DNA of 51,190 nucleotides. Source: Planctomycetota bacterium. Its GTDB lineage: Bacteria > Planctomycetota > SZUA-567. The stretch is from the NCBI GenBank assembly GCA_036770065.1, contig DAIPJX010000001.1, positions 1-51,190 on the forward strand, in the 5' to 3' direction. This document shows positions 3,383 to 51,042 of this stretch, in pieces; position 1 is the first letter of the stretch, and every line of letters begins with the position of its first letter. The translations under genes were made by a program, and so were the position numbers. The notes under the pieces were generated by a model that was not told the origin of the DNA, did not search any database, and saw nothing but the letters and a program-made list of their open reading frames with translations.

Positions 3383-6300
3383 TTGAACACGGAACCAAAT
3401 ACTTCACCCGCCCCAAACGACATCCCCTCGCATGTGCTGGAACACCTGAACGAAACCATGCTCCGCGACCGCCCGCGCCTCGGCAGAGACGCAGTACGCC
3501 TCAAGGCAATCGCCAAAAAATCGGACAAGGATTTGCTCGCAATCGACCGCTTGTGGACGCTCTTTGAAAAATCCGCCCGCATACGGACCGCCCGCGCGCA
3601 ACAAGCGCCCATACTGGAATTTCCGCCCGAACTGACCATCAGCGAACAAATACGCAACATAACCGAAACAATTCAAAACAATCAGGTCGTCATTATCGCC
3701 GGCTCAACCGGCTCGGGAAAAACAACCCAGCTTCCCAAAATTTGCCTTTCGCTCGGACGCGGACAGGAAGGCATGATCGGCATCACCCAGCCCCGACGCA
3801 TCGCCGCCATGTCGGTTGCGGCGCGAGTCGCCCGCGAAGTCAACACCAGCCTCGGCGAAATGGTCGGCTATCAAATCCGCTTCCAGGCCCGCGCCAAACC
3901 GGAAACGCTGGTCAAATTCATGACCGACGGCGTTCTCCTGAACGAACTCAGGGGAGACCCCGAACTGCTCGCCTACGACACGGTGATTCTGGACGAAGCG
4001 CACGAACGGAACCTGGATACGGATCTGCTCCTCGGCTGCATCCGCCGCATACTGCCGTCCAGGCCGAATTTCCGGCTCATCGTTTCGTCCGCGACGCTTG
4101 ACGTGGAACGCTTCGCCGCCTACTTCGACGACGCGCCGGTCATCCTTCTCGAAGGCAGAACCTATCCCGTCGACGTACGCTACCGCCCGCCGGAAGACGA
4201 AGACGAGGACGATCCCGATCTTGACGTTATGATTCTCCACGCGGTGGAAGAACTGGTCCGTGAATTGCCGACCGGAGACATTCTCGTATTTCTTCCCGGC
4301 GAAGGCGACATCCGCGAAGCGGGCGATACGCTCATGCGATCGGGACCGCGCGACTGCCTGATAACGCCGCTCTATTCGCGCCTCACGCCTGAAGAGCAAC
4401 AGAAAGCGTTTCAGGCGACGGAACGGCGGAAAATCATTCTCGCCACCAACGTGGCGGAAACGTCGTTGACGATTCCGTCCGTCCGCGCAGTTATCGATTC
4501 GGGCCTTGCCCGCATGAAACGCGTGTCCGACCGCGCATCGGTCGAACGGTTGCAAATTGAAAAGATCAGCCAGGCATCGGCGGAACAGCGGAAAGGCCGC
4601 GCCGGACGAGTCGCGCCGGGCATTTGCGTGCGGCTGTATTCGGAAAAGGATTTTCTCAAGCGCCCCGCCTTTACCGATCCGGAAATTCGCCGGGCGTCGC
4701 TCGCGTCCGTCATCTTGCGCTTGCGCCATTTGGGCCTCGGCGCGGTGGAGGAGTTTCCGTTCCTTGACGCGCCCCAACCGTCGCGGGTGGCGGAAGGCTA
4801 CCGCGAACTGGCCGAACTGGGCGCGCTCGACGAAAAACGCGCCATCACCGGTCATGGCCGGCGCATGGCGGCGCTGCCGGTCGAACCGCGCTTTGCCCGG
4901 ATACTGCTCGAGGCGAAGCGAAACGGCGTTCTGGAACCGGCGCTGATCATTGTCGGCATGCTGACGGTGCAGGACCCGCGCGAGCGTCCCCAACAGAAAA
5001 AAGGCGAAGCGGAAGCGGCGCATCGCCGTTTCCTGCATCCGAAATCCGATTTTCTCGGCTGGCTGCAATTGTGGAAGTTTTACGACGACGCGTTGGCGGC
5101 GGCGCCGTCGAAATCGCAGGCGCGCAAATTCTGCCGACAGAATTTTTTGAATTACCTGCGCATGCAGGAATGGCGCGATGTGCGACGGCAGGCGGCGGAC
5201 ATCATGGCGGCGATTGAAGACGGGAAAGATGCGCCGCCCACTTCCCCGCCCCTCGCCCACGCCGACAAGGACGGCGGCTACGCGCGGCTGCACAAGGCGA
5301 TTTTGGCGGGGCTGCTTGGCCGCATGGGCAAGCGCACGGAAGAGAACGAGTATCAGGGCGCGCGCGGCGTGAAGTTTTTGCTTTGGCCCGGATCAGGGCT
5401 TGCCCGCGCCGCGCGTGAACGACGCGACGCCAGCCGTCATGCGGGCGACATGCCGAGTGAAATCAAGCGAAAGAGCCAATTGCCGCTGTGGGTGGTCGCG
5501 GCGGAACTGGCGGACACCAGCCGCCTGTTCGGGCGGGGCGTCGCCGAGATTGATCCGTTGTGGGCGGAAGAACTGGCCGGACATCTGGCAAAGCGTTCGT
5601 ATTCGGAACCATTCTACGATGCGCGGTCGGGGTTTGTCCGGGCGCGCGAAAAAGTCGAGGTCTACGGGCTGCCGGTGATAGAAGGACGGCGCGTCCATTA
5701 TGCCTCGGTCAATCCGGTCGCGGCGCGGGAGATTTTCATCCGCCAGGCGCTGGTCGAAGAAAACTTGACGGCAAAGTTTTCATTTTTTGCCGAAAACACC
5801 GCCCTCGCCCACGCTGTCGCCGAAATCGCCCACAAGGCCCGGCAACCGATCATGGCGAGCGCCGACGCGATGTACCGGTTTTACAACGAACGGTTGCCGG
5901 AGGATGTGCATAACGATCGGGCGCTGGGAAAATTTTATTACGCGGAAGAAAAGAAACGCCCCGGTTTTCTTCTGCTGACGCGCGAATACCTGATGGACAA
6001 CCCGCCGGACGGCATTACGCCCGACCGTTTTCCCCGGGAAATAGCGCTGGCGGGCCGCACCTATCCCCTGTCGTACATGTTTCATCCGGGGCATGACGAA
6101 GACGGGGTGACGGTGACGGTTCCGGTTGCCGACATTCCCAATTTGCCGGCGTGGCGGATGGACTGGCTGGTTCCGGGACTTCTTGGCATGAAGGTGGCGG
6201 ATTTGCTTCGTCATTTGCCGAAAAGCATCCGGCGCGACGTAACGCCGATTCCCGAAACGGCGGCGGAGATTACCGAACGAATTGGAGCGCCGGATCGGCC

Positions 6301-8372: not shown

Positions 8373-8412
8373 CACGATTCGTATCGTGATACTACAAATA
8401 AATTGGTATAAT
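8373..8412 (+). promoter_or_regulatory. 16-bp palindrome plus extended -10 promoter upstream of nrdD
   Basis: CACGAT-TCGT-ATCGTG (8373-8388) and TGGTATAAT (8404-8412). The palindrome overlaps the -35 position. Confidence 0.4.
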
Positions 8413-8451
8413 CATTATAGACATCACAGTACTCAATGGAGAGAAAAGAAC

Positions 8452-10848
8452 ATGTCAGGCATTAACCGGGTCATAAAGCGCGACAAACTGTCCGTACCGT
8501 TCGACCAGTCGAAAATCAGCGACGCCATCTTCGCCGCGGCCCGGGCGGTGGGAGGCGAAAACCGGCAGCTTGCCGACGATATCGCCGCCCTGGTCGTCAC
8601 GTTGTTGGAAAAACGCTATACAGACGATACGCCCCCCGGTATTGAAGACATTCAAGACATGGTGGAAAAGGCGCTTATCGAAACAGGCCACGCCAAAACA
8701 GCCAAGGCATACATCCTGTATCGCGAACGCAGGGCAAAAGCGCGCGACGCCATGCAGGTCCGGAAAGCAACCTCTTCCAGCGGCGCGGATTCGACCGACA
8801 TTCATCTTCTGGTCGATCCGGGCAGTCAGGCCGAGTATTACGCCTGGGATCGTTCGCGCATCGCCAACGCACTGGTGAAGGAAGCCGGGCTGGACGCGCT
8901 TGAAGCGTCCTCCATCGCCAAAGCGGTGGAAAAACGCGTGTTGGCGTCGGGCCTGACCCGCATCTCCACCAGCCTTATCCGCGAACTCACGGACAATGAA
9001 CTGTTCGAGCGAGGCCACCAGAAAACATTGGAAAAACAGGCGTTGATCGGATTGCCTAAATATGATATCGAGCAGTTGATCATGTCGAAATCGAAAGAGA
9101 ATTCCAATATCTCGGCCAACAACCCGGAAGCGATCAACCTGGCCATTGCCGAGACGGTGTTGAAACAGTACGCGCTTCAGGAAGTGTTCTCGCCCGAAGT
9201 CGCCGACGCCCACCGGGAAGGCGCTGTCCACTTGCACGATTTGGGCTATCCCACCCGCGTGTATTGTTCGTCGCATTCTATCGAGTATTTGAAAAAATAC
9301 GGCCTGCAACTGGAAAACCTGGACACATCCTCCGCCCCGGCGAAGCACGCCCGTACCCTGACCGGCCACCTGAACACGTTCCTCGCCTCCATGCAGGCGT
9401 ATTATGCGGGCGCGCTCGGCGTCGCGTACATCAACATCATGTATGCGCCGCTCGTCGAAGGCATGTCGGACAAGGAAATGCGCCAGGAAGCGCAGCACCT
9501 GATCTTCTCGTCCAGCCAGAACGCGTTTTCGCGCGGCGGCCAAACCCTGTTCCTGGACTTCAATATCCACACCGGCATCCCCGGATATCTGAAGAACATC
9601 CCCGCCATCGGCCCGGGCGGCAAATATCTCGACCGCACCTACGGCGATTTCGCCGACACCGCCACCCGCTTCACCAAGGCGATGCTGGACGTCTGGGCGC
9701 AAGGCGATCAGTACGGCCATATTTTCGCCTTCCCGAAATGCGACTTCCACATCAACCACGAAACGTTCGAAGATCCCAAGCAGTACGCAATCTACGAATA
9801 CGCCTGTGAAATCGCGGCGAAGAACGGCACGCCGTACTTCATCTTCGACCGCGACGAAGTCACCCTCTCCGCCTGCTGCCGCTTGCGGACGGTGATTGAA
9901 GACACCCACATGATTCGCCACCCCGAATCGATGCGCTTCTGCGGATTCCAGAACGTGACCATCAACCTGCCCCAGTGCGCATACCGCGCCGGACGCGGGA
10001 ACTTTTCCAAACTGTTCACGGAAATCGAGAAGAGCCTCGACATTTGCGTCAAGGCGCATCACGAGAAAAAGAAATTCGCCCGCATCCTCATGTCCGGGCC
10101 GTCCATGCCGTTGTGGCAAATCGGCAAAATCGCCGCAGACGGCCGTCCCTATGTGGATTTGGATCAGGCGACGTATATTGTCGGCGTTATCGGCCTGAAC
10201 GAGTGCCTCGCCTATCTCACCGGCAAGGAGTTGCACGAAGACGCGGACGCGCTCAGGCTCGGCATGAAGGTTATCAGCCACCTGTACTTCTGCATCAAGG
10301 AAATGGGCAAGAAACACGGGATGAAGATAACAATCGAGGAATCCCCGGCCGAGTCCGCCGCCCGCCGCCTGGCGAAAATCGATTTGAAAAACTTCCCCGA
10401 AGCGGCCGGCTTTATGCGCGGTTCGCGGACGGACGATGAAATCTACTATACCAATTCCGTCCACCTCCGTCCCGACGCGAAAGACGGCATTGTCGACCGC
10501 ATAATGAAACAGGCGAAATTCCACAGCCTGATCGAATCCGGCGCGATTATCCATGCGTTCGTGGGCGAGTCCCGTCCGTCCGCCGGCGCGATCTCGTCCC
10601 TGGTGCGGAAAACGTTTGAAAAGACCAAGGCGGCGCAACTCACGATCAGCCCCGAGTTCACCATCTGCCGCTCCTGCCACAAGGTCGGCGCCGGCATCAG
10701 CCAGACCTGCCCGCACTGCGGCGCGGTCAATATTCCCGGCATCCGACGCATCGACGAGACCGAACCGACCGGCGCGGCCTGGAGCCGCGACGCGCTGGCC
10801 GAGCTGTCCCGGATAGAAATGGTCGGAGCAGGCTGCTGTGGAGACTGA
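8452..10848 (+). CDS. nrdD: Anaerobic (class III) ribonucleoside-triphosphate reductase homolog with a non-canonical C-terminus
   Basis: N-terminal ATP-cone, ACCRL finger-loop motif, and C-terminal Zn ribbon CRSC...CPHC. The ATG at 8452 is preceded by GGAGAG. The expected RVxGY glycyl-radical motif reads RRIDET. Confidence 0.8.
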   Translation: MSGINRVIKRDKLSVPFDQSKISDAIFAAARAVGGENRQLADDIAALVVTLLEKRYTDDTPPGIEDIQDMVEKALIETGHAKTAKAYILYRERRAKARDAMQVRKATSSSGADSTDIHLLVDPGSQAEYYAWDRSRIANALVKEAGLDALEASSIAKAVEKRVLASGLTRISTSLIRELTDNELFERGHQKTLEKQALIGLPKYDIEQLIMSKSKENSNISANNPEAINLAIAETVLKQYALQEVFSPEVADAHREGAVHLHDLGYPTRVYCSSHSIEYLKKYGLQLENLDTSSAPAKHARTLTGHLNTFLASMQAYYAGALGVAYINIMYAPLVEGMSDKEMRQEAQHLIFSSSQNAFSRGGQTLFLDFNIHTGIPGYLKNIPAIGPGGKYLDRTYGDFADTATRFTKAMLDVWAQGDQYGHIFAFPKCDFHINHETFEDPKQYAIYEYACEIAAKNGTPYFIFDRDEVTLSACCRLRTVIEDTHMIRHPESMRFCGFQNVTINLPQCAYRAGRGNFSKLFTEIEKSLDICVKAHHEKKKFARILMSGPSMPLWQIGKIAADGRPYVDLDQATYIVGVIGLNECLAYLTGKELHEDADALRLGMKVISHLYFCIKEMGKKHGMKITIEESPAESAARRLAKIDLKNFPEAAGFMRGSRTDDEIYYTNSVHLRPDAKDGIVDRIMKQAKFHSLIESGAIIHAFVGESRPSAGAISSLVRKTFEKTKAAQLTISPEFTICRSCHKVGAGISQTCPHCGAVNIPGIRRIDETEPTGAAWSRDALAELSRIEMVGAGCCGD

Positions 10849-24907: not shown

Positions 24908-24984
24908 GATCACGTAGCGCAATTGGTTAGAGCACCAGACTGTCGATCTGGAGGTTGCGGGTTCGAGTCCCGTCGTGATCGCCA
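24908..24984 (+). tRNA. tRNA-Asp (anticodon GTC), copy 1
   Basis: Cloverleaf folded by hand. Acceptor GATCACG/CGTGATC, anticodon loop CTGTCGA, T-arm GCGGG-TTCGAGT-CCCGT, encoded CCA. Confidence 0.9.
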
Positions 24985-25064: not shown

Positions 25065-25141
25065 GATCGCGTAGCGCAATTGGTTAGAGCACCAGACTGT
25101 CGATCTGGAGGTTGCGGGTTCGAGTCCCGTCGCGATCGCCA
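25065..25141 (+). tRNA. tRNA-Asp (anticodon GTC), copy 2
   Basis: Identical to copy 1 except for a compensatory acceptor-stem pair (GATCGCG/CGCGATC). Confidence 0.9.
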
Positions 25142-42370: not shown

Positions 42371-44683
42371 CTATGGAACCTTCAGGCTCGATGCGGCGAC
42401 AACACGGTTGCGACCGTCATGCTTCGCCTTGTACAACGCATTATCGGCACGATCAATAAGCCGTTCCAAATCCTCGCGCTTGTCATACTCGGCAATACCG
42501 ATCGAACAGGTAAGCGACAACGATATCCCGCCCAAATCAAACTCCGACTCCTCAATTCGCGCACGCAAACGCTCCGCCCCGGTCATCGCGCTGCGCTCAT
42601 CGCTATACGGCATGATAACGACAAACTCCTCCCCACCGTAACGGGCGGGAATATCGACATCGACACGCATCGTTTTTTTCAACAAATCAGCCAACGCGCA
42701 CAGCGCCTTGTCTCCAATCGTATGACCGTACATGTCATTGACGCGCTTGAAATGATCGACATCCACAATCGCAATGGAAAGACGGTGGCTATGGCGACAC
42801 GAATGAATCATCGCCGTACTCAACTGACCAATCAAATGACGGCGATTGAACAACCCGGTCAACGGATCGACAATGGTCAAATCATTCAACTGCCTGAGCA
42901 AACGAACATTATACAGGCTCGACGACAACAAATCGAAAAACAACGTGCTGATTTCCGCATCCCTGGATTCGAACTTGTCCTCGCCGCCCCGACCGCCGAT
43001 GATAAGGCCGCCCAACATGTTCGCCTCGCCGTCCGACGATGCCGAAACACACAACGGCATCACCAGCGCCGTCGTTCCCAAATACGGCGACCACTCCTCC
43101 GGTATGCGAACCGCAAGTTGCGCGTCATTGTCGGCGACGAAAATCCCCCGGGCCTCGTGCTCCTCGACAACGAACGGCTCCTGCTGGGAAAAAAACAACG
43201 TAACAAGAAAATGATCCGCATCACGATCGCGATGGAGAACGGACGGACAAGGAACAGACGCCTCCTCCGTGCCCCGGAACAAACGCAGTTCGCGCGAAGG
43301 CGCGTCATACAAATACAACGCCGCAAACGAACAATTGAAATATCCCGGAATTTCCGTCGTCGCGAGAAGCGCGATTTCATCGATATCCGAAACGCTCAAC
43401 CTGTGCGCCAAATGAGCGGCGCGGGAAAAGTACGCGACGTTTTCCTGAATTTCATGCAACTCCCACACGTGGAATTTATTGTCGCTTCGAGCCTGTTTAT
43501 AAAGTTGTTGCAAACGAACCGCATGGGCCACCACATCGGCGCTGGGAAGCGCGGCAAGCGCCGCGTCCTCATATATCTTGACGTCGGGGAGGACATCGGC
43601 GTTGTCCCGGGGACATGCTTCAATGGCGCCGTCGCACTTCCCGCCCAAATACGGGAAAAAATCGTCGCCAGACCTGTCCGCCCGATTCTTGCGGACAAAA
43701 CTTCGGAATCCGTTCGGATGGCCGGAATGCCACCGCCAAGCGGTCGTCATAATGTTCTCAAGCGACGAACGCTCCGCCGTCCACCCAAGCTCCCGGTTGG
43801 CGCGTTCGCACGACGCCACCAACATCGCCGGGTCGCCCGCCCTGCGCGGCAACACAACCGCCGGAATCGAATGCCCCGTCACCGACCGCGCCGCCTCAAC
43901 CACCTGCCTGACCGAATACCCCGAACCCGTCCCAAGATTGAACGCGCCGGAAGGCTGGCCCCGCGACAAATATTCCAGCGCCTTCACATGGGCGGACGCA
44001 ATGTCCTCGACATGAACGTAATCGCGGACGCACGTCCCGTCCGGCGTATCGTAGTCGTCGCCGAAAATAGAAATCTTTTCCGACCGCCCCTGCGCCACCC
44101 GTAAAACAAGCGGAATCAAATGACTCTCCGGCTCGTGATCCTCGCCGATCGATCCCGTATAATGCGCACCGCACGCATTGAAATAACGAAGCGCGGCATA
44201 GGAAATCTTCCCGCGCGCAGCCAACCACGACAACGCCTCCTCCACCATAAGCTTGGTATGCCCATAAACATTTACGGGACAGGTCGGCGCATCCTCCGGA
44301 ATGGGAATAACGTCAGGCTGGCCATACACGGCGGCGGTGGAACTGAATACATAATACCCTATGCCGCACTCCGTCACGGTCTTGAGGAGCGACAAAACGG
44401 CCATGGTGTTGTTGGTGTAATACTTCACGGGATCGTTCATGCTCTCGCCCACCTCAATATAGGCGGCGAAATTCATGACAGCTTCAATGGAAAACTGCCG
44501 GCATACGCGCTCAACAAGCTCGTTATCGAGAATATTGCCGTGAATCAACTCCACATCCCGCACCGCTTCGGCGTGCCCGTTTTCGAGCGAATCGAGAACG
44601 ACAGGAACATGCCCCGCTTCCTGAAGCGCTCGCACGGTATGAGAACCAATATACCCCGCGCCCCCCGGGACGAGTATATTCAT
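42371..44683 (-). CDS. Fusion protein: UDP-glucose 4-epimerase (GalE) - GAF - GGDEF diguanylate cyclase
   Basis: aa 1-335 are GalE-like (GGAGYIGSH, SSTAAVYG, YGHTK). aa ~395-590 are GAF-like. aa ~600-765 are GGDEF (DPLTGLFNRR..., RYGGEEF, ...ADNALYKAKHDGRNR). It is a single uninterrupted 770-aa ORF. Confidence 0.85.
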   Translation of the reverse strand: MNILVPGGAGYIGSHTVRALQEAGHVPVVLDSLENGHAEAVRDVELIHGNILDNELVERVCRQFSIEAVMNFAAYIEVGESMNDPVKYYTNNTMAVLSLLKTVTECGIGYYVFSSTAAVYGQPDVIPIPEDAPTCPVNVYGHTKLMVEEALSWLAARGKISYAALRYFNACGAHYTGSIGEDHEPESHLIPLVLRVAQGRSEKISIFGDDYDTPDGTCVRDYVHVEDIASAHVKALEYLSRGQPSGAFNLGTGSGYSVRQVVEAARSVTGHSIPAVVLPRRAGDPAMLVASCERANRELGWTAERSSLENIMTTAWRWHSGHPNGFRSFVRKNRADRSGDDFFPYLGGKCDGAIEACPRDNADVLPDVKIYEDAALAALPSADVVAHAVRLQQLYKQARSDNKFHVWELHEIQENVAYFSRAAHLAHRLSVSDIDEIALLATTEIPGYFNCSFAALYLYDAPSRELRLFRGTEEASVPCPSVLHRDRDADHFLVTLFFSQQEPFVVEEHEARGIFVADNDAQLAVRIPEEWSPYLGTTALVMPLCVSASSDGEANMLGGLIIGGRGGEDKFESRDAEISTLFFDLLSSSLYNVRLLRQLNDLTIVDPLTGLFNRRHLIGQLSTAMIHSCRHSHRLSIAIVDVDHFKRVNDMYGHTIGDKALCALADLLKKTMRVDVDIPARYGGEEFVVIMPYSDERSAMTGAERLRARIEESEFDLGGISLSLTCSIGIAEYDKREDLERLIDRADNALYKAKHDGRNRVVAASSLKVP

Positions 44684-44695
44684 GTCATCTCCCCG

Positions 44696-46042
44696 TCATT
44701 CGAAATGTTCGTCCCTCACCAGACTGTCGTAATCCTGGCGTTCACGAATCACCATCGCCGTATCGCCGTCCACCATGATTTCAGCCGGCATGAGGCGGGA
44801 ATTATAGTTGCCCGCCATGGTCGAACCATACGCCCCGGCGGAAAACAACGCCAACACCTGCCCCCGCTGCAACAAAGGAAGGCGACGGCCCTTGGCAAAG
44901 CAATCGGATGACTCGCAAATCGGACCGACGACATCGGTCATGACAAAACCATGTTCATCGACCTCCCGCGAATACGAAACGCTCGCCAGCTCCGATTCCT
45001 CGCGGGAGAAATACGAGGAAGCGTCGGGGGAATTAAACAAATGCGACGGCGGCAAACCGTCATACCGCGTCGGCCACACAAAATGATAGGCGTCATACAT
45101 GGCCGGACGAATCAGATCGTTCATCCCCGCATCCACAATAGTGAAGTGGCGAGCGCCGTTGTCTTTTGCGTACAACACGCGCGTCAAAAGAATCGCGGCA
45201 TTGCCGACGATGGAACGCCCCGGCTCGATAATCAGCCTCGAACCGCAACTCTTCACATGCGGGACAATCGCGGCCGCATACTCCTCGAACGTCGGAACCG
45301 TCTGGTTCCGGTACAGCAACCCAAACCCGCCGCCCACATTCAAATACTCAAACTGCGCGCGAACCGAACGGTGCTCCCTGATGAAACGCGCAACCTTCCC
45401 AAGCGCCTCCGCATACGGCGCAGTGGAATAAATGGGCGAACCAAGATGCAAATCAAGCCCAAGAAGACGAATGTTCGGCTGCTCGGCGATGTTGCGGACT
45501 ATGCGCGAAGCCGTGGCGAAATCGATGCCGAACTTGTTTTCCTTTTTCCCCGTCGTCGTCTTGGCATGGGTGTGCGCGTCCGTGTCGGGATTGAGGCGAA
45601 GCGCGACCGGCGCGACCATCCCCATGCCGGCGGCAATGGACTGAATAACGTCCAGCTCCGCCTCCGACTCGACATTGAACATGAGAATATCGTTGGACAA
45701 CGCCTGACGAATTTCGTTGTCGGTCTTGCCGACGCCCGCGAACACAATCTTCCTCGGGTCGGCCTTGACCTTCATGGCGCGAAACAATTCGCCCCCGGAA
45801 ACAATGTCGAAACCGGCGCCGGCGTCGCGCAACACCTTCAATACGCCAAGCGAACTGCACGACTTGACCGAAAAGGCAATCGTGGCCGGAATATCCGAAA
45901 ACGCCTTTTGCACCCGCTTGAACGTGTTGAAAATCGTCTTTTTGGAATAAACGTACAGTGGCGTGCCGTACCGTTCCGCCAACGTATCGACGGGAATATC
46001 CTCGCAAAACAACTGTCCCGACTTGTACGTGAAATGCTCCAT
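44696..46042 (-). CDS. lysA: Diaminopimelate decarboxylase
   Basis: GTPLYVYS..., AFSVKSCS (PLP Lys), ...GGGFG..., ...PICESSD..., SAGAYG. Confidence 0.9.
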   Translation of the reverse strand: MEHFTYKSGQLFCEDIPVDTLAERYGTPLYVYSKKTIFNTFKRVQKAFSDIPATIAFSVKSCSSLGVLKVLRDAGAGFDIVSGGELFRAMKVKADPRKIVFAGVGKTDNEIRQALSNDILMFNVESEAELDVIQSIAAGMGMVAPVALRLNPDTDAHTHAKTTTGKKENKFGIDFATASRIVRNIAEQPNIRLLGLDLHLGSPIYSTAPYAEALGKVARFIREHRSVRAQFEYLNVGGGFGLLYRNQTVPTFEEYAAAIVPHVKSCGSRLIIEPGRSIVGNAAILLTRVLYAKDNGARHFTIVDAGMNDLIRPAMYDAYHFVWPTRYDGLPPSHLFNSPDASSYFSREESELASVSYSREVDEHGFVMTDVVGPICESSDCFAKGRRLPLLQRGQVLALFSAGAYGSTMAGNYNSRLMPAEIMVDGDTAMVIRERQDYDSLVRDEHFE

Positions 46043-46070: not shown

Positions 46071-46469
46071 CTATTCCGTTTTGCCGTACACCCGCTCCGG
46101 ATCGAACACCTTCACCCCATCCTCAACCAGCCCGTTCCCGGTCAGTTTGAAATGAAAACAGGAACGCATCCCCGTATGACAGGCCGAACCGCCGTTTTGT
46201 TTGATTTTGACGAGAACGCAGTCCTTGTCGCAATCGAAACGCATTTCCTTCACTTCCTGCGTGTTGCCGCTCGACTCGCCCTTGACCCAAAATTTCTGGC
46301 GGCTGCGGCTCCAATAGGACGCCAACCCCTTTTCAATCGTCTGCTTCAAGCTGTCCTTGTTCATATACGCAACCATCAGAACCTCGCCTGTCTCCGCATC
46401 CTGCGCCACGCACGGAATAAGACCATTCTGATCATATTTCAATGTGTCCAGAAACGAAAAATCCACCAT
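46071..46469 (-). CDS. hisI: Phosphoribosyl-AMP cyclohydrolase (monofunctional HisI)
   Basis: GLIPCVAQDAETGEVLMVAYMN...YWSRSRQKFWVKGESSGN...DCDKD...CHTG. The start is at an internal Met preceded by GGAGGCGA. Confidence 0.9.
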   Translation of the reverse strand: MVDFSFLDTLKYDQNGLIPCVAQDAETGEVLMVAYMNKDSLKQTIEKGLASYWSRSRQKFWVKGESSGNTQEVKEMRFDCDKDCVLVKIKQNGGSACHTGMRSCFHFKLTGNGLVEDGVKVFDPERVYGKTE

Positions 46470-46625
46470 GTCGCCTCCAATTCCAACCAAACCAGTCGAC
46501 AGCACCCACGCTCCCGCCCGAAACGCGTCACGACGGCAATGCAAATTCATACGTTAAATGAAAAGCCCCCTGTTCGCAAGCACAAAACAGCAACCATATT
46601 CCGGTCTTTGCGGAAAAACGGACTT

Positions 46626-47245: not shown

Positions 47246-49036
47246 CTACTCCATGGCGATTGATTCGGTAATGCCCAAAGCGCCCGCGAGACGCGACAGG
47301 CTCTGCCACGAAACGTCACCCGAGAAATGCCAGCCAAACCGCTCTCTCCCGCCAATTATCGTCCACGCGCCCATAAAACCATAGCCAAGCATTTCCCGGG
47401 CAAGCTGGGCGGAAAGCGGTTCGTTCTGATCCGGCGAACGCGGACGCCAATCCGCCATCTCTATCAAAGCCATTTGCACAAAACGGACTGGATCCATTAT
47501 CCCCATGAACGAAGCGCCGCCCGAGGGCAACCTGACAAACGCCTGCCGCAAAAACGGACCGCCGTCACCGGTAGAAAACGCCGCCTCCCGCGCCACTTCG
47601 GCCCGATAGCGAAGAAGCTCGTCCTGCCCGGACAAGTCGTCCCTGCTGCCGCCGACAGCCAGCGCGATACGCCCGCCGTTTTTATGCATCGCGAGAGAGG
47701 CATGATAATACGGCGTCCTCCGCTCGCCCGAATCGGCGGGGAAAATGCGCACCTCCGCCGTTCCCCCGACATCGGGAGAGGTCTCGACCTCCACCGTCCA
47801 GCCTATCCGGGACAACGACTGCGACGCCACCGTCCCCGGCTTCAACAACTCCCGCGCCATCGTCCACGCGGCATCGAGATACTCCGGCGAAAGCCACTCT
47901 CCGACCAAAAGACGCGTTACACCCAACTGCGGCCTGCCGGGCGGCGGCGGCACCCAGGCAACCGACATCTGCGCCGGCTGACTTTGCTTCAACAATGAAA
48001 GCAGCTCAGACCCGACACGACGCGCCTCCGTCGTCATGACTCCGCCCGCGCCGTCGACAAACAGCCTGGCGACGTTTTCGCCAAACACATCCACCGCCTC
48101 CGAATCCACCGGAACGGCAAAGGCAAGCGCGGACCTGTCCGGCAACGAACGAAACGTGGAAAGCTGAGACACCGTTCCCAACCCTCCGCCGCCGTCCACC
48201 CTCACCCGCCATTCAATGCCCTTCTCTTCCAGCCATACGTTCAGGGTGACGCGCTCGAAACGGCGGGGCCATAACGCAAACTGCTCCGTCACTTCGCCCA
48301 TCAACCGAACGCGGGCCGGACTCGGTTGCCAGTATTGGACCAAATCTCCCATCAACGTTTCCAAAACGTCACGCCACCAATATCGTCCCGGTTCGCTGTC
48401 CTGCCAGGCGGTGATTGCACCGGGGTCGATGGAGAGCATCGCATCAGGCCGGGTGTATTCGCCGTTATGGCCGGCAAGCAGGCCGTGAGCCGCGCTGTTC
48501 TCCGCATAAATGCGGCGGCATGCGGCAACCGCCGCGCTGTCCTTGCCAAACACCGCTATATTGCCCGGCAACCATTCCAGATGCCAAACGCTGAAGTTGC
48601 CGTCCTCGTCCATCTCGCGAAGAACCGTGACGCCGTCCATGCCCTCGTATTCGGTCAACCCCTGGTTCGCCAATTGCGTCATGTATTCATCGCGGCTATC
48701 GACGGGAAAAACCCAGAGCGTCCGCACCGAGCCAGGCCTGACAGGGGCAAGAATCACAACCTCCATCCAAGCCTCGAATATCAGCCCGTAAAAAGTCGGG
48801 TTGCGGATAATCGGGCCAACCAGCGTCTTGAGCGGAGGCGGAAAACGGCCGTCGTTGCGAATACCCTTCAAAAAAACGGCCAGCGGGCCGTCCTCGGCGT
48901 CGATAAGCTCGACATTGCCGAAACGGGCAATCGCCAGCGGCTGCCATTCATTGCCCGCGTCCAGCGCCCGCGCCGGACCGATACCGCACACAACGAAAAA
49001 AACGGCGAGAATAAAAAAAAGAAGGCAACGCTTCAC
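47246..49036 (-). CDS. Hypothetical secreted protein (596 aa)
   Basis: Signal peptide MKRCLLFFILAVFFVVCGIGPARA. The GTG start overlaps the upstream stop (GTGA). No family recognised. Confidence 0.6.
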   Translation of the reverse strand: MKRCLLFFILAVFFVVCGIGPARALDAGNEWQPLAIARFGNVELIDAEDGPLAVFLKGIRNDGRFPPPLKTLVGPIIRNPTFYGLIFEAWMEVVILAPVRPGSVRTLWVFPVDSRDEYMTQLANQGLTEYEGMDGVTVLREMDEDGNFSVWHLEWLPGNIAVFGKDSAAVAACRRIYAENSAAHGLLAGHNGEYTRPDAMLSIDPGAITAWQDSEPGRYWWRDVLETLMGDLVQYWQPSPARVRLMGEVTEQFALWPRRFERVTLNVWLEEKGIEWRVRVDGGGGLGTVSQLSTFRSLPDRSALAFAVPVDSEAVDVFGENVARLFVDGAGGVMTTEARRVGSELLSLLKQSQPAQMSVAWVPPPPGRPQLGVTRLLVGEWLSPEYLDAAWTMARELLKPGTVASQSLSRIGWTVEVETSPDVGGTAEVRIFPADSGERRTPYYHASLAMHKNGGRIALAVGGSRDDLSGQDELLRYRAEVAREAAFSTGDGGPFLRQAFVRLPSGGASFMGIMDPVRFVQMALIEMADWRPRSPDQNEPLSAQLAREMLGYGFMGAWTIIGGRERFGWHFSGDVSWQSLSRLAGALGITESIAME

Positions 49037-51042
49037 GGTTCCAGCCCTCCGTCCCCGTCAAGCGCGGCGCGAAGCCGGCGGGCGTCGTCGAGAAAAGGAA
49101 AGCTGAAAACAACGTTCCCGTCCTCCGCCACGGAAAACAAAACGCGCAAACCCTGCGTCTCGCCGGCAATCGTCCGCAGCGCGTGGCCAAGCAGGGGATT
49201 CGCCTCCATCGTCGCGTCAATCAGGGCCGAATCGCCCGCAATGTGGATTTCGCCTTCCACCATGCCATCCGGGTACACTTCGACAAGGCCGGTCGCCTGA
49301 CCGGTCACATCGCCGTACACGCGAAACTCGACAAACATTGCGCCGTCCCCGCCCTTTTCCATAACCACGGACAACTGCTCAACCGGAATCGACGCCTTTT
49401 CCGAGAGAGCACGGAGCGACGCCGCGTCACCACCGCCCCATTCGGGCAACGCCCCGACAACGGCATTGGGAATGCCGGCAAGCCCCCGCCACCAAGCTCC
49501 GCTCGCCGCCGTATCCAGAACAGGCTGGGCAAACACCAGCCCAACGCCCCATTCATCCACGCCGCCAGCGCTGTCAAGCACGCCGCGCCAACTCATATTG
49601 GCGCTTCCGCCTGACATTCTCAGAGGGAACCCGCCAGGAATCCATTGCGACAATTTTTGCACCAACTGGGACGCATCCAGGCGTTCGGCCGCGACAATAA
49701 CGGGAGAACCCGGCTGATCGGGCGACATGGCAATACGTACGCGCCCGCCCATCAGGCCCGCCTCGCCCGTCAGATTGAGGCCCGCAACCGTCCTGATCAG
49801 CCGCAAATGCATGTCCGTTCCGGACCAGCCGAACCCCAGCCAGCGCCCCGCGCGCCACTCAACCGAGGAAAACGTTCTGGATACCCAGTCGGGCCAGCGC
49901 GAGTAACTGGTAAATATGGCGGGCATATCGTCAAGCGACGCGACATCGCCCTGCATCGTCATGGACTGCGGCCTGCCCTCCCCGTCCAGCTTCATATTGA
50001 TGGCGAACGCGCCGAAACCGGGAGGACCAAGCCGAATCGTCGCGGACAAACCGGCTTTCATCGGACCGACCGGCCAATCAACCCGAACGAGCGACTGCCT
50101 CGGCAAACCGAACACGGCCAGCGGAACATCGTGGAGTTCGCCCTCGACAATTACTTTTCCCTCCGCCTCGGAACTCTCCGCCAGACGAACAAATCCGCTC
50201 ACCGCGCCGCCCACCGTGTCCAGCGGAATGCCGGGAAAAAGAAACGACACCATACGGGCGGGAATATTCTCGAAAGCGCCGCCGCAATATCCGGGAACAA
50301 AACGGGGGGATTCCCCGGGAGCCGCGCCCGGATGCGCCACTATCGTCGCCGGACCCAAAACGCCCTCCGCCTTTTCATCGGCTCCAGCCATCCCGAACGT
50401 GAACGGCAACCGCTCGACATTCAGGGACACCCTGTCGCTGTCGCGCGTTCCACTCAACGTACCGCTCAAGGCAACGGCGGCTTCGTACCGGCGGCGGCGG
50501 ACCAAAAGCGTTCCGTCGGCAATCCTGGCTTCCCATTCCTTGATGCGGGGCACGGGAAACGGAAACGACGAATCACCGGCGGCAAGCGGGTTCATCAGTC
50601 CTTCGCTCGACCACTCGCCGGATTCGTTTTCCTCGAAAATCAACCGCATTCTTTCCGCGACCACAGTCAATTTTCCCGGCCACAAATGGAAAACGGACCA
50701 CGGGGGAGCATAGGCGGAAAGGCCGCTCACGCGAGCGAATTTACTGGAAAAAAGCGGATTCGGATGTTCAACCTCGATAATGGGAAGGGATATTCGCGAG
50801 CGACGGAGGAGGTTGATCCGGACCGCGATGTCGGCAAGCAGGCCGACGTCGGCGTTCAGCTTCTCGTCCAGCCAGCTTTGCATGGCATGCCGCTTGTTCT
50901 GCGACATGTACGATCGCTGCGCCAGCCACGTCGCCAGCCAAAGAACGCCCACAATGAATACAACCGCAACGCCACACCGCACGAGAAAGCGTGACGAAAA
51001 ACGAAAGCGCCGCTCTCTCCGTGTTTTTTCTTTCATCGGCAT
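49033..51042 (-). CDS. Hypothetical N-terminally membrane-anchored large protein (AsmA-like architecture, tentative)
   Basis: Basic N-terminus followed by one TM helix (CGVAVVFIVGVLWLATWLA), then ~620 aa that are predicted extracytoplasmic. The AsmA similarity rests on architecture only. Confidence 0.5.
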   Translation of the reverse strand: MPMKEKTRRERRFRFSSRFLVRCGVAVVFIVGVLWLATWLAQRSYMSQNKRHAMQSWLDEKLNADVGLLADIAVRINLLRRSRISLPIIEVEHPNPLFSSKFARVSGLSAYAPPWSVFHLWPGKLTVVAERMRLIFEENESGEWSSEGLMNPLAAGDSSFPFPVPRIKEWEARIADGTLLVRRRRYEAAVALSGTLSGTRDSDRVSLNVERLPFTFGMAGADEKAEGVLGPATIVAHPGAAPGESPRFVPGYCGGAFENIPARMVSFLFPGIPLDTVGGAVSGFVRLAESSEAEGKVIVEGELHDVPLAVFGLPRQSLVRVDWPVGPMKAGLSATIRLGPPGFGAFAINMKLDGEGRPQSMTMQGDVASLDDMPAIFTSYSRWPDWVSRTFSSVEWRAGRWLGFGWSGTDMHLRLIRTVAGLNLTGEAGLMGGRVRIAMSPDQPGSPVIVAAERLDASQLVQKLSQWIPGGFPLRMSGGSANMSWRGVLDSAGGVDEWGVGLVFAQPVLDTAASGAWWRGLAGIPNAVVGALPEWGGGDAASLRALSEKASIPVEQLSVVMEKGGDGAMFVEFRVYGDVTGQATGLVEVYPDGMVEGEIHIAGDSALIDATMEANPLLGHALRTIAGETQGLRVLFSVAEDGNVVFSFPFLDDARRLRAALDGDGGLEP

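Follow-up and report, generated by a model that had tools for sequence, protein, structure and literature searches.

The stretch of DNA analysed in this work (hereafter, the window) comprises 51,190 nucleotides of contig DAIPJX010000001.1, belonging to the assembly GCA_036770065.1 of a Planctomycetota bacterium (lineage SZUA-567). On its minus strand, downstream of hisI and lysA, it harbors an open reading frame (ORF) coding for a UDP-glucose 4-epimerase (GalE) plus, on the same polypeptide, a diguanylate cyclase composed of a long helix, a GAF-fold domain, and a GGDEF domain, the latter being predicted to synthesize cyclic di-GMP (c-di-GMP). A first-pass annotation of the DNA had described this ORF as a single-frame fusion of GalE to GAF and GGDEF domains. 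According to the ORF listing, the frame is continuous over 770 codons, with no interruption between the GalE and the cyclase parts, and the Pfam, NCBIfam, and predicted-fold assignments agree with that description. The coordinates of the features are reported in Table 1.

Table 1. Features of the locus encoding the GalE-cyclase fusion and other features of the window (positions are those of the window; aa, amino acids; pLDDT, predicted local distance difference test)
Feature	Position	Strand	Details	Basis
Whole fused ORF	42371..44683	(-)	770 aa, ATG start, stop at 42371-42373 (TAG/TGA-type)	ORF listing
GalE module (UDP-glucose 4-epimerase)	43706..44683	(-)	aa 1-326	TIGR01179, 2c20 alignment, L005 GalE
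NAD-binding GGAGYIGSH	44639-44665	(-)	aa 7-15	Motif
Catalytic YGHTK	44252-44266	(-)	aa 140-144	Motif
Codon 327, CGA (Arg), fusion point	43703..43705	(-)	At the position of the relatives' galE TGA	Codon table; L005/L016 stops
Flexible tether	43568..43705	(-)	aa 327-372	pLDDT, homologue alignment, in-frame start scan
AGG (R337)	43673-43675	(-)	Aligned with Met1 of P0123/P0124	Homologue alignment
TTG (L346)	43646-43648	(-)	First in-frame candidate start after GalE	In-frame start scan
Long N-terminal helix of the cyclase	43391..43567	(-)	Helix aa 381-431; kept in all stand-alone homologues	AlphaFold2, pLDDT ~90
GAF-fold domain	42968..43390	(-)	aa 432-572	AlphaFold2 models, Foldseek
Connecting (signaling) helix	42872..42967	(-)	aa 573-604, family signature DLLSSSLYN	AlphaFold2; invariant alignment columns
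GGDEF diguanylate cyclase domain	42374..42871	(-)	aa 605-770	PF00990, TIGR00254, PleD alignment
Degenerate I-site RVDVD	42653-42667	(-)	aa 673-677
GGEEF active site	42623-42637	(-)	aa 683-687
lysA (diaminopimelate decarboxylase)	44696..46042	(-)	12 nt upstream of the fusion	Pfam
hisI (PRA-CH)	46071..46550	(-)	Upstream of lysA; order as in L004, L005, and L013	Pfam
tRNA-Asp(GTC), two tandem copies	24908-24984, 25065-25141	(+)	~80 nt apart; the window showed no other RNA gene

The first 326 residues of the protein represent a full-length GalE. The NCBIfam galE equivalog TIGR01179 matches with 419.8 bits (cutoff 262.3) over residues 2-324, that is, positions 1-330 of the 332 of the model, and the Pfam family Epimerase (NAD-dependent) covers residues 3-251 (E 8e-54). 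The module aligns end-to-end with the solved UDP-glucose 4-epimerase 2c20 (353 bits, up to residue 328 of 330) and shares 71% identity, over 326/326 residues, with the stand-alone GalE encoded at L005, one of the related loci considered below. The hallmarks listed in the first-pass annotation (the NAD site, SSTAAVYG, YGHTK, and a full-length C-terminal substrate domain) were all retrieved where they had been placed: GGAGYIGSH at residues 7-15, FSSTAAVYG at 113-121 (SSTAAVYG at 114-121), and YGHTK at 140-144, each with an aligned counterpart in 2c20; moreover, the C-terminal substrate-binding domain is complete, extending to residue 328/330 of 2c20 and matching the L005 GalE over its whole length of 326 residues. 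The epimerase had correctly been considered full-length, but its end had been set at about residue 335, whereas it actually falls at residue 326, which is the natural C-terminus of both 2c20 and the L005 GalE. The residue that we presume to correspond to the "gatekeeper" Tyr299 of the Escherichia coli enzyme appears to be a Leu (GDPAMLVAS, residues 283-291). GalE enzymes are homodimers. Judging from these comparisons, the module should still be able to interconvert UDP-glucose and UDP-galactose.

At the opposite end of the polypeptide, the GGDEF domain is recognized by both PF00990 (residues 604-760, E 6e-44, 150 bits against a cutoff of 23.8) and TIGR00254 (162 bits against a cutoff of 37.4). 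In the HMMER alignment with PleD (1w25/2wb4), the metal-binding, GTP-binding, and transition-state/catalytic residues are conserved, and the segments DVDHFKRVND...GH..GD and KAK..GRN match residue for residue. The RxxD allosteric I-site occurs in many, although not all, diguanylate cyclases. Both earlier statements on this domain, i.e., the presence of an active-site-type RYGGEEF (residues 681-687) and the lack of an RxxD motif five residues upstream of it, agree with the PleD alignment, in which the I-site reads R673-V-D-V-D677 against R-A-(gap)-I-D of PleD; the one-residue gap makes it an RxxxD and not an RxxD. The stand-alone cyclases of the homologue alignment keep this RxxxD as well. Such a degenerate I-site suggests a weak or absent feedback inhibition by the product.

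The region preceding the GGDEF domain was analysed through two AlphaFold2 models, one of residues 327-770 (alignment of 35 homologues, mean pLDDT 88.6) and the other of residues 373-610 (pLDDT 83.8). In the former, residues 381-431 form one long helix, residues 434-566 an alpha/beta domain, and residues 573-604 a long helix running into the GGDEF domain. Probing this region with the Pfam GAF families (PF01590, PF13185, and PF13492) did not retrieve any match at E<=0.1, and the family profile compared with all PDB sequences gave no significant match, the best one (E ~0.45) being to GAF domains of cyanobacteriochromes, at their first helix and strand. With the model of residues 373-610, all of the top 50 Foldseek matches in the PDB were GAF domains (E ~1e-5, probability 1.0), including those of phytochromes, cyanobacteriochromes, Lcd1, and DevS. 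The GAF fold begins with a helix, continues as a six-stranded antiparallel sheet interspersed with helices, and closes with a C-terminal helix, and this model conforms to it. The GAF-like domain proposed earlier is thus recovered at the level of the predicted fold, on which its assignment rests, since sequence profiles detect none. The residues of this domain that are invariant in the family include C451, A454, A455, W531, P543, G558, G559, and G563.

When the model of residues 327-770 was used as query, the first Foldseek match was 4zmu (Dcsbis, a cyclase from Pseudomonas aeruginosa; ~360 columns), followed by the phytochrome-linked IsPadC (5llw/5llx). Dcsbis and IsPadC are helix-linked dimers. 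Of the structural matches to the modelled cyclase module these two are the best, aligning with it over ~360-410 columns including sensor, helix, and GGDEF domain; unlike the fusion, they lack an epimerase domain, their sequence identity to the module is 22-25%, and the ligand may differ. The models are consistent with a cyclase module that would be active as a dimer held together by its helices and controlled by its own GAF domain. No transmembrane segment was found in the fusion protein, the maximum 19-residue Kyte-Doolittle mean being 1.19; between the epimerase and the GAF domain, AlphaFold2 predicts a disordered tether and a helix of amphipathic character.

The two modules are joined by a segment that the first-pass annotation had described as a linker of about 60 residues. 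A connecting segment is indeed present, but its make-up is different: a disordered tether of ~45 residues (327-~372) is followed by the ~50-residue helix (381-431) of the cyclase. Residues 327-366 have a pLDDT <50 in the model of residues 327-770. The junction reads ...HPNGF326 and continues in frame, starting from Arg327 (CGA), as RSFVRKNRAD-R337-SGDDFFPYLGG.... In comparison, the stand-alone GalE proteins terminate with ...HPEGY-TGA (L005), ...HPNGY-TGA (L016), and, one codon later, ...HPEGYS-TGA (L014); in these three loci, the spacer between galE and the cyclase gene is 113 nt (L005), 154 nt (L016), and 94 nt (L014) long, and the cyclase gene lies in a different frame.

According to the homologue alignment, the stand-alone cyclases start around residues 337-345 of the fused protein and, downstream of R337, the DDFFPYLGG stretch matches their acidic-aromatic N-terminal tail (DESSNLFEG / DEDSNIFAG in the homologues P0123 and P0124). 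From this comparison, the tether appears to consist of a former spacer (residue 327 to ~336/345, ~10-19 codons, stop-free) and of the acidic N-terminal tail belonging to the cyclase family itself. Where the homologues have their Met1, the fusion has AGG337 and no in-frame ATG, GTG, or TTG, the first candidate start being TTG346. Since AGG337 replaces that Met1, the separate start of the cyclase seems to have been lost too, so that more than one change would have occurred. The nucleotide alignment of the tether with the L005 spacer did not reveal any convincing homology; hence, the correspondence of the stop codon rests on the protein alignment of the GalE C-termini. Moreover, no promoter or terminator was found inside the galE-cyclase spacers of L005, L014, and L016 or in their counterpart in the fusion; as the counts were at chance level, the scans indicate at most that an obvious terminator is absent.

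The same 770-residue protein is encoded on contigs of three assemblies, i.e., an ENA contig of 117,755 bp, a Logan contig (SRR4051758), and a contig of the Joint Genome Institute (JGI) metagenome 3300000059. Between the ENA and Logan contigs, the DNA of the fused ORF shows no difference, and the JGI one departs from them at one base, with a synonymous change. The junction can be considered real because three different assemblers/pipelines leave it open in the same way, and because the synonymous single-nucleotide polymorphism, located elsewhere in the ORF, indicates that the JGI contig does not simply duplicate the consensus of the others. As a separate observation, the plus strand carries a 561-residue ORF (42419-44104) antisense to the fused gene, probably a shadow ORF of the type typical of GC-rich coding sequence.

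A fusion of GalE to an apparently active cyclase is very rare, according to the database searches. In two word-indexed searches, the fusion protein itself was the sole full-length match: with the full-length query, only this protein covers both halves, and the other matches listed cover ~31-44% of the query, corresponding to the GalE part. When 1.84 billion cluster representatives were scanned exhaustively with phmmer (top score 377 bits), no second GalE-cyclase protein was retrieved; the matches listed hit either residues 1-~339 or ~367-767, and never both. Such a protein should have topped the list because it would have out-scored the GalE-only matches; the query itself is not among the representatives listed, and fusions clustered under a shorter representative could thus be hidden. 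Pattern scans of genome and metagenome contigs for further fused copies gave pattern matches but no confirmed relatives, and a literature search for GalE-diguanylate cyclase fusions yielded nothing relevant. A JGI metagenome protein of 480 residues (P0087, on a 3-kb contig) combines GalE with a Pfam-recognized GAF domain (PF13185/PF01590) and lacks a GGDEF domain; its GAF domain is unrelated in sequence to that of the fusion.

The cyclase module belongs to a family whose other members are stand-alone proteins. Using residues 326-770 as query, the best matches were stand-alone proteins of 392-467 residues, 42-48% identical over ~90% of the query, in which Pfam recognizes the GGDEF domain only; a profile search with the middle domain added six further members, all of them stand-alone (424-451 residues). 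Overall, 13/13 members (P0121-P0127 and P0240-P0245; 392-467 residues) are stand-alone, and a GalE N-terminus is found only on the fusion protein; one of them is annotated as a "GGDEF domain-containing protein [Planctomycetota bacterium]". The stand-alone cyclases linked to lysA share 41-50% identity, over ~90% of the module, with the C-terminal ~400 residues of the fusion, together with the same long helix, GAF fold, DLLSSSL helix, GGEEF, and RxxxD. One member (P0122), whose N-terminus aligned with the GalE C-terminus, was considered as a second fusion and discarded, the N-terminus being an extension of the gene call into the spacer, in a frame different from that of the upstream galE.

The organization of the genes flanking these cyclases resembles that of the window. 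In 9/11 distinct related loci, lysA is followed by the cyclase gene or by galE; in the other two (L014 and L016), the contig stops within galE. Seven distinct loci (L004, L007, L008, L009, L012, L013, and L015) have the cyclase gene directly after lysA, which is often preceded by hisI. In L005/L006, L014, and L016, which derive from three different samples, the gene immediately upstream of the cyclase is a separate galE. The order at L005 (hisI, lysA, galE, cyclase) is that of the fusion locus, with the last two genes separate. The recurrent galE-cyclase neighborhood, together with the weak evidence that the spacers hold no terminator-like signal, suggests a possible functional association, e.g., between the supply of polysaccharide precursors and c-di-GMP control. 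Two observations concern the same neighborhoods. In L004, a locus of a Planctomycetota metagenome-assembled genome, lysA and the cyclase gene are ~680 nt apart; in this gap, where other loci have galE, there is an 87-residue ORF (5621-5884, plus strand) with no Pfam match, and tblastn with GalE found nothing there. Furthermore, the hisI/lysA-cyclase neighborhood represents a conserved pairing of histidine and lysine biosynthetic genes with a c-di-GMP synthase.

Neither half of the fusion appears to be decaying, as its divergence falls within the range of the unfused proteins and all catalytic motifs are intact. The GalE part is 65-71% identical to the unfused GalE proteins, which are 63-73.5% identical among themselves; in the same way, the cyclase module shares 44-50% identity with its relatives, and these 40-55% with each other. 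A rough neighbor-joining tree (no support values) places the fusion next to the galE-adjacent P0121/P0122 lineage, with no long branch. Among the GalE matches, a 424-residue NCBI protein (P0002) was examined as a relative of the linker and rejected, its score being higher than that of other GalE matches due to an internally duplicated segment. This segment, of ~45 residues and visible in the alignment, spans the YxxxK region; the same kind of GalE duplication was deduced for P0266 (455 residues) from two matched stretches. In both cases, this could represent a tandem duplication or an assembly artefact.

The architecture had been regarded as not previously described, which is not the case: epimerase, GAF, and GGDEF domains on one chain have been known since 2020 from extended PelD proteins. 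Extended PelD proteins of Gram-positive bacteria possess a GalE-like short-chain dehydrogenase/reductase domain at the N-terminus (predicted to be functional in Brevibacillus), after which come a transmembrane region, a GAF, and a degenerate GGDEF domain; PelD is a c-di-GMP receptor, acting through its RxxD motif, and it is encoded in pel operons of the pelDEADAFG type (Whitfield 2020, PLoS Pathog, PMC7112168). The protein under study shares with them the presence of epimerase-like, GAF, and GGDEF-fold domains on one polypeptide and the theme of sugar nucleotides and c-di-GMP; it differs in being soluble, in having an intact GGEEF and no RxxD, and in being encoded among housekeeping genes. The fusion arose independently of PelD. 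What is known, then, is the combination of epimerase, GAF, and GGDEF domains; what is new is a GAF-GGDEF cyclase that probably captured its upstream neighbor galE by read-through.

Fusions at the C-terminus of GalE have other precedents. In yeast Gal10, an epimerase-mutarotase (1z45) that was among the PDB matches, a full-length GalE is also N-terminal and the partner is attached at its natural C-terminus, and many GalE-GalT, GalE-GalK, and GalE-glycosyltransferase fusions were found among the matches of the full-length query; GalE therefore tolerates C-terminal partners. In all these cases the partner is an enzyme of the same pathway, whereas here it is a second-messenger synthase. As for the cyclase, the upstream enzyme gene fadA of Pseudomonas fluorescens fused spontaneously to the adjacent cyclase gene fwsR nine times, with adaptive effect, through deletions that retained only the membrane-spanning part of FadA and relocalized the cyclase (Farr & Rainey, bioRxiv 10.1101/091744). 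The two systems have in common the translational fusion of a metabolic-enzyme gene to the adjacent downstream cyclase gene by a simple mutation; at the locus studied here, unlike in FadA-FwsR, the soluble enzyme is kept in full, and the fusion probably came about when a stop codon was lost.

On the whole, we consider it rather probable that the protein is a lineage-specific read-through fusion of two neighboring co-directional genes, most likely working as two independent modules on a flexible tether. In the ancestral order, galE with its TGA stop, a spacer, and a stand-alone cyclase gene would have followed lysA. The stop would then have been substituted (TGA to CGA), opening a short in-frame spacer, probably together with the loss of the cyclase ATG (ATG to AGG). 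The product would be a bifunctional cytoplasmic protein in which GalE works as usual and the cyclase makes c-di-GMP under its own GAF domain. The fusion would mainly fix a 1:1 expression and the proximity or co-localization of the two activities, and it would make the synthesis of the cyclase dependent on galE translation; independent translation of a full-length cyclase would have been removed, with no in-frame start before TTG346. As the tether of ~45 residues is predicted to be disordered, allosteric communication between GalE and the cyclase seems unlikely.

Some points weigh against this read-through scenario with independent modules. The adjacency of galE and the cyclase gene in four lineages hints, by "Rosetta stone" logic, at a functional link going beyond co-expression. 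Furthermore, the disorder that AlphaFold predicts for the tether from a shallow alignment is weak evidence against contacts between the modules, and the structure models cover residues 327-770 and 373-610, not GalE and the cyclase together. The epimerase and cyclase activities of the fusion are themselves predicted from sequence comparison, and the evidence for continuity consists of assembled contigs, the three assemblies possibly stemming from one biological sample. Lastly, the fusion is carried by a single genome, so that comparative support for selection, or for accumulation of the full-length product, is absent; it may have been selected or may be a tolerated neutral event.

Different explanations attribute a role to the physical link itself. 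The first-pass annotation had proposed that the fusion couples c-di-GMP synthesis to UDP-hexose or NAD status, or that GalE was recruited as a sensor; we found no positive evidence for either proposal. If GalE acted as, or doubled as, an input domain, the UDP-hexose or NAD(H) state would modulate c-di-GMP synthesis, tying biofilm/exopolysaccharide signaling to precursor supply. The presence of galE directly upstream of cyclase genes of this family, observed in four lineages, speaks for such a role, as does the lack of a canonical I-site, by which other inputs may matter more to the cyclase, and PelD with N-terminal epimerase-like domains combines such domains in polysaccharide control (PMC7112168). 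However, the join is a low-confidence, acidic tether, partly derived from a spacer, and not a structured transducer such as the helix between the GAF and GGDEF domains; the cyclase already owns a GAF sensor and its helix; the two genes are separate in three lineages; GalE keeps every enzyme hallmark with typical conservation; and the fusion is a singleton. The sensor role is accordingly considered improbable. We assign an equally low probability to a selected fusion in which UDP-galactose supply is physically coupled to c-di-GMP, either with GalE tuning the cyclase or with precursor and activator delivered locally to a polysaccharide synthase. Slightly less improbable, though still unlikely, is that GalE acts as a scaffold: as a constitutive homodimer, it would keep two cyclase modules paired, or relocate them, raising basal c-di-GMP with no ligand sensing. 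The structure of an artificial GCN4-zipper-WspR fusion (3i5c) is among the PDB matches, and the nine adaptive fadA-fwsR fusions of P. fluorescens offer an experimentally observed precedent (bioRxiv 10.1101/091744); yet the stand-alone family already possesses the ~50-residue N-terminal helix and the connecting helix, which are expected to dimerize it, a long floppy tether constrains little, and GalE, being soluble with no transmembrane segment, would not relocalize the cyclase to the membrane.

Two remaining explanations deny either the fusion or its identity. The genes might be separate, the open junction being a consensus error, or a recent mutation might yield an unstable long product, with the cyclase made from TTG346. 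A single T-to-C change at the stop would suffice if the spacer was already in frame, and a spacer of ~10-19 codons that is in frame and stop-free is not improbable (we estimate roughly 1 in 8); the TTG346 start would give a product of 425 residues, within the length range of the family, and all the carrying contigs possibly come from one sample. Against this stand the agreement of three assemblers on the junction, with a JGI contig carrying a synonymous polymorphism elsewhere, and the lack of an in-frame start at the homologues' Met1 position (AGG337); moreover, substitution errors do not survive the consensus in deep short-read data. An artefact or a non-functional read-through is, thus, in our opinion quite improbable. 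As for an extended PelD, which would bind c-di-GMP and switch on the synthesis of Pel polysaccharide, the order of the domain types does equal that of the Brevibacillus-type PelD (PMC7112168), but we consider this identity extremely improbable. The protein has no transmembrane region (maximum 19-residue mean of 1.19), its GGEEF is intact while RxxD, the c-di-GMP-binding motif of PelD, is absent, no PelD Pfam match was found at E<=0.1, no pel or other polysaccharide genes occur in the 51-kb window, and its closest relatives are soluble stand-alone cyclases. The PelD identity was consequently rejected on three defining features, namely, the transmembrane region, the degenerate GGDEF with RxxD, and the pel operon.

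Should the fused protein be made and both halves work, it would represent a natural experiment joining a nucleotide-sugar enzyme to a c-di-GMP synthase, in a bacterium that is uncultured and apparently anaerobic. Along with the recurrence of the galE-cyclase neighborhood, it would, if true, point to a connection between UDP-galactose supply and c-di-GMP signaling and, if the modules were coupled, it would serve as a natural "Rosetta stone" for a source of c-di-GMP gated by metabolites or acting locally. It also offers an example, datable in principle, of how a multidomain signaling protein can originate from one point mutation in a stop codon, mirroring the laboratory fadA-fwsR fusions. Being a singleton, with selection or coupling unsupported, its value is that of a lead and not of a discovery.

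Regarding the wider locus, the genes neighboring the fusion are hisI, lysA, Ham1, ThiF, a PP-loop ATPase, and HIT, and, across the window, Pfam annotation revealed neither glycosyltransferase or pel genes nor others for polysaccharides. The window also encodes NrdD (8386-10848, plus strand), an anaerobic ribonucleotide reductase bearing an ATP-cone domain, which points to an anaerobic or facultative lifestyle of the source organism. Finally, two ORFs of 596 (47246-49036) and 669 residues (49033-51042), both on the minus strand and overlapping by 4 nt, had no Pfam, NCBIfam, or PDB-sequence match. They are located directly after murC, murB, ddl, and a 297-residue ORF, in the place usually occupied by ftsA/ftsZ in the division/cell-wall cluster, and they may code for lineage-specific division proteins.

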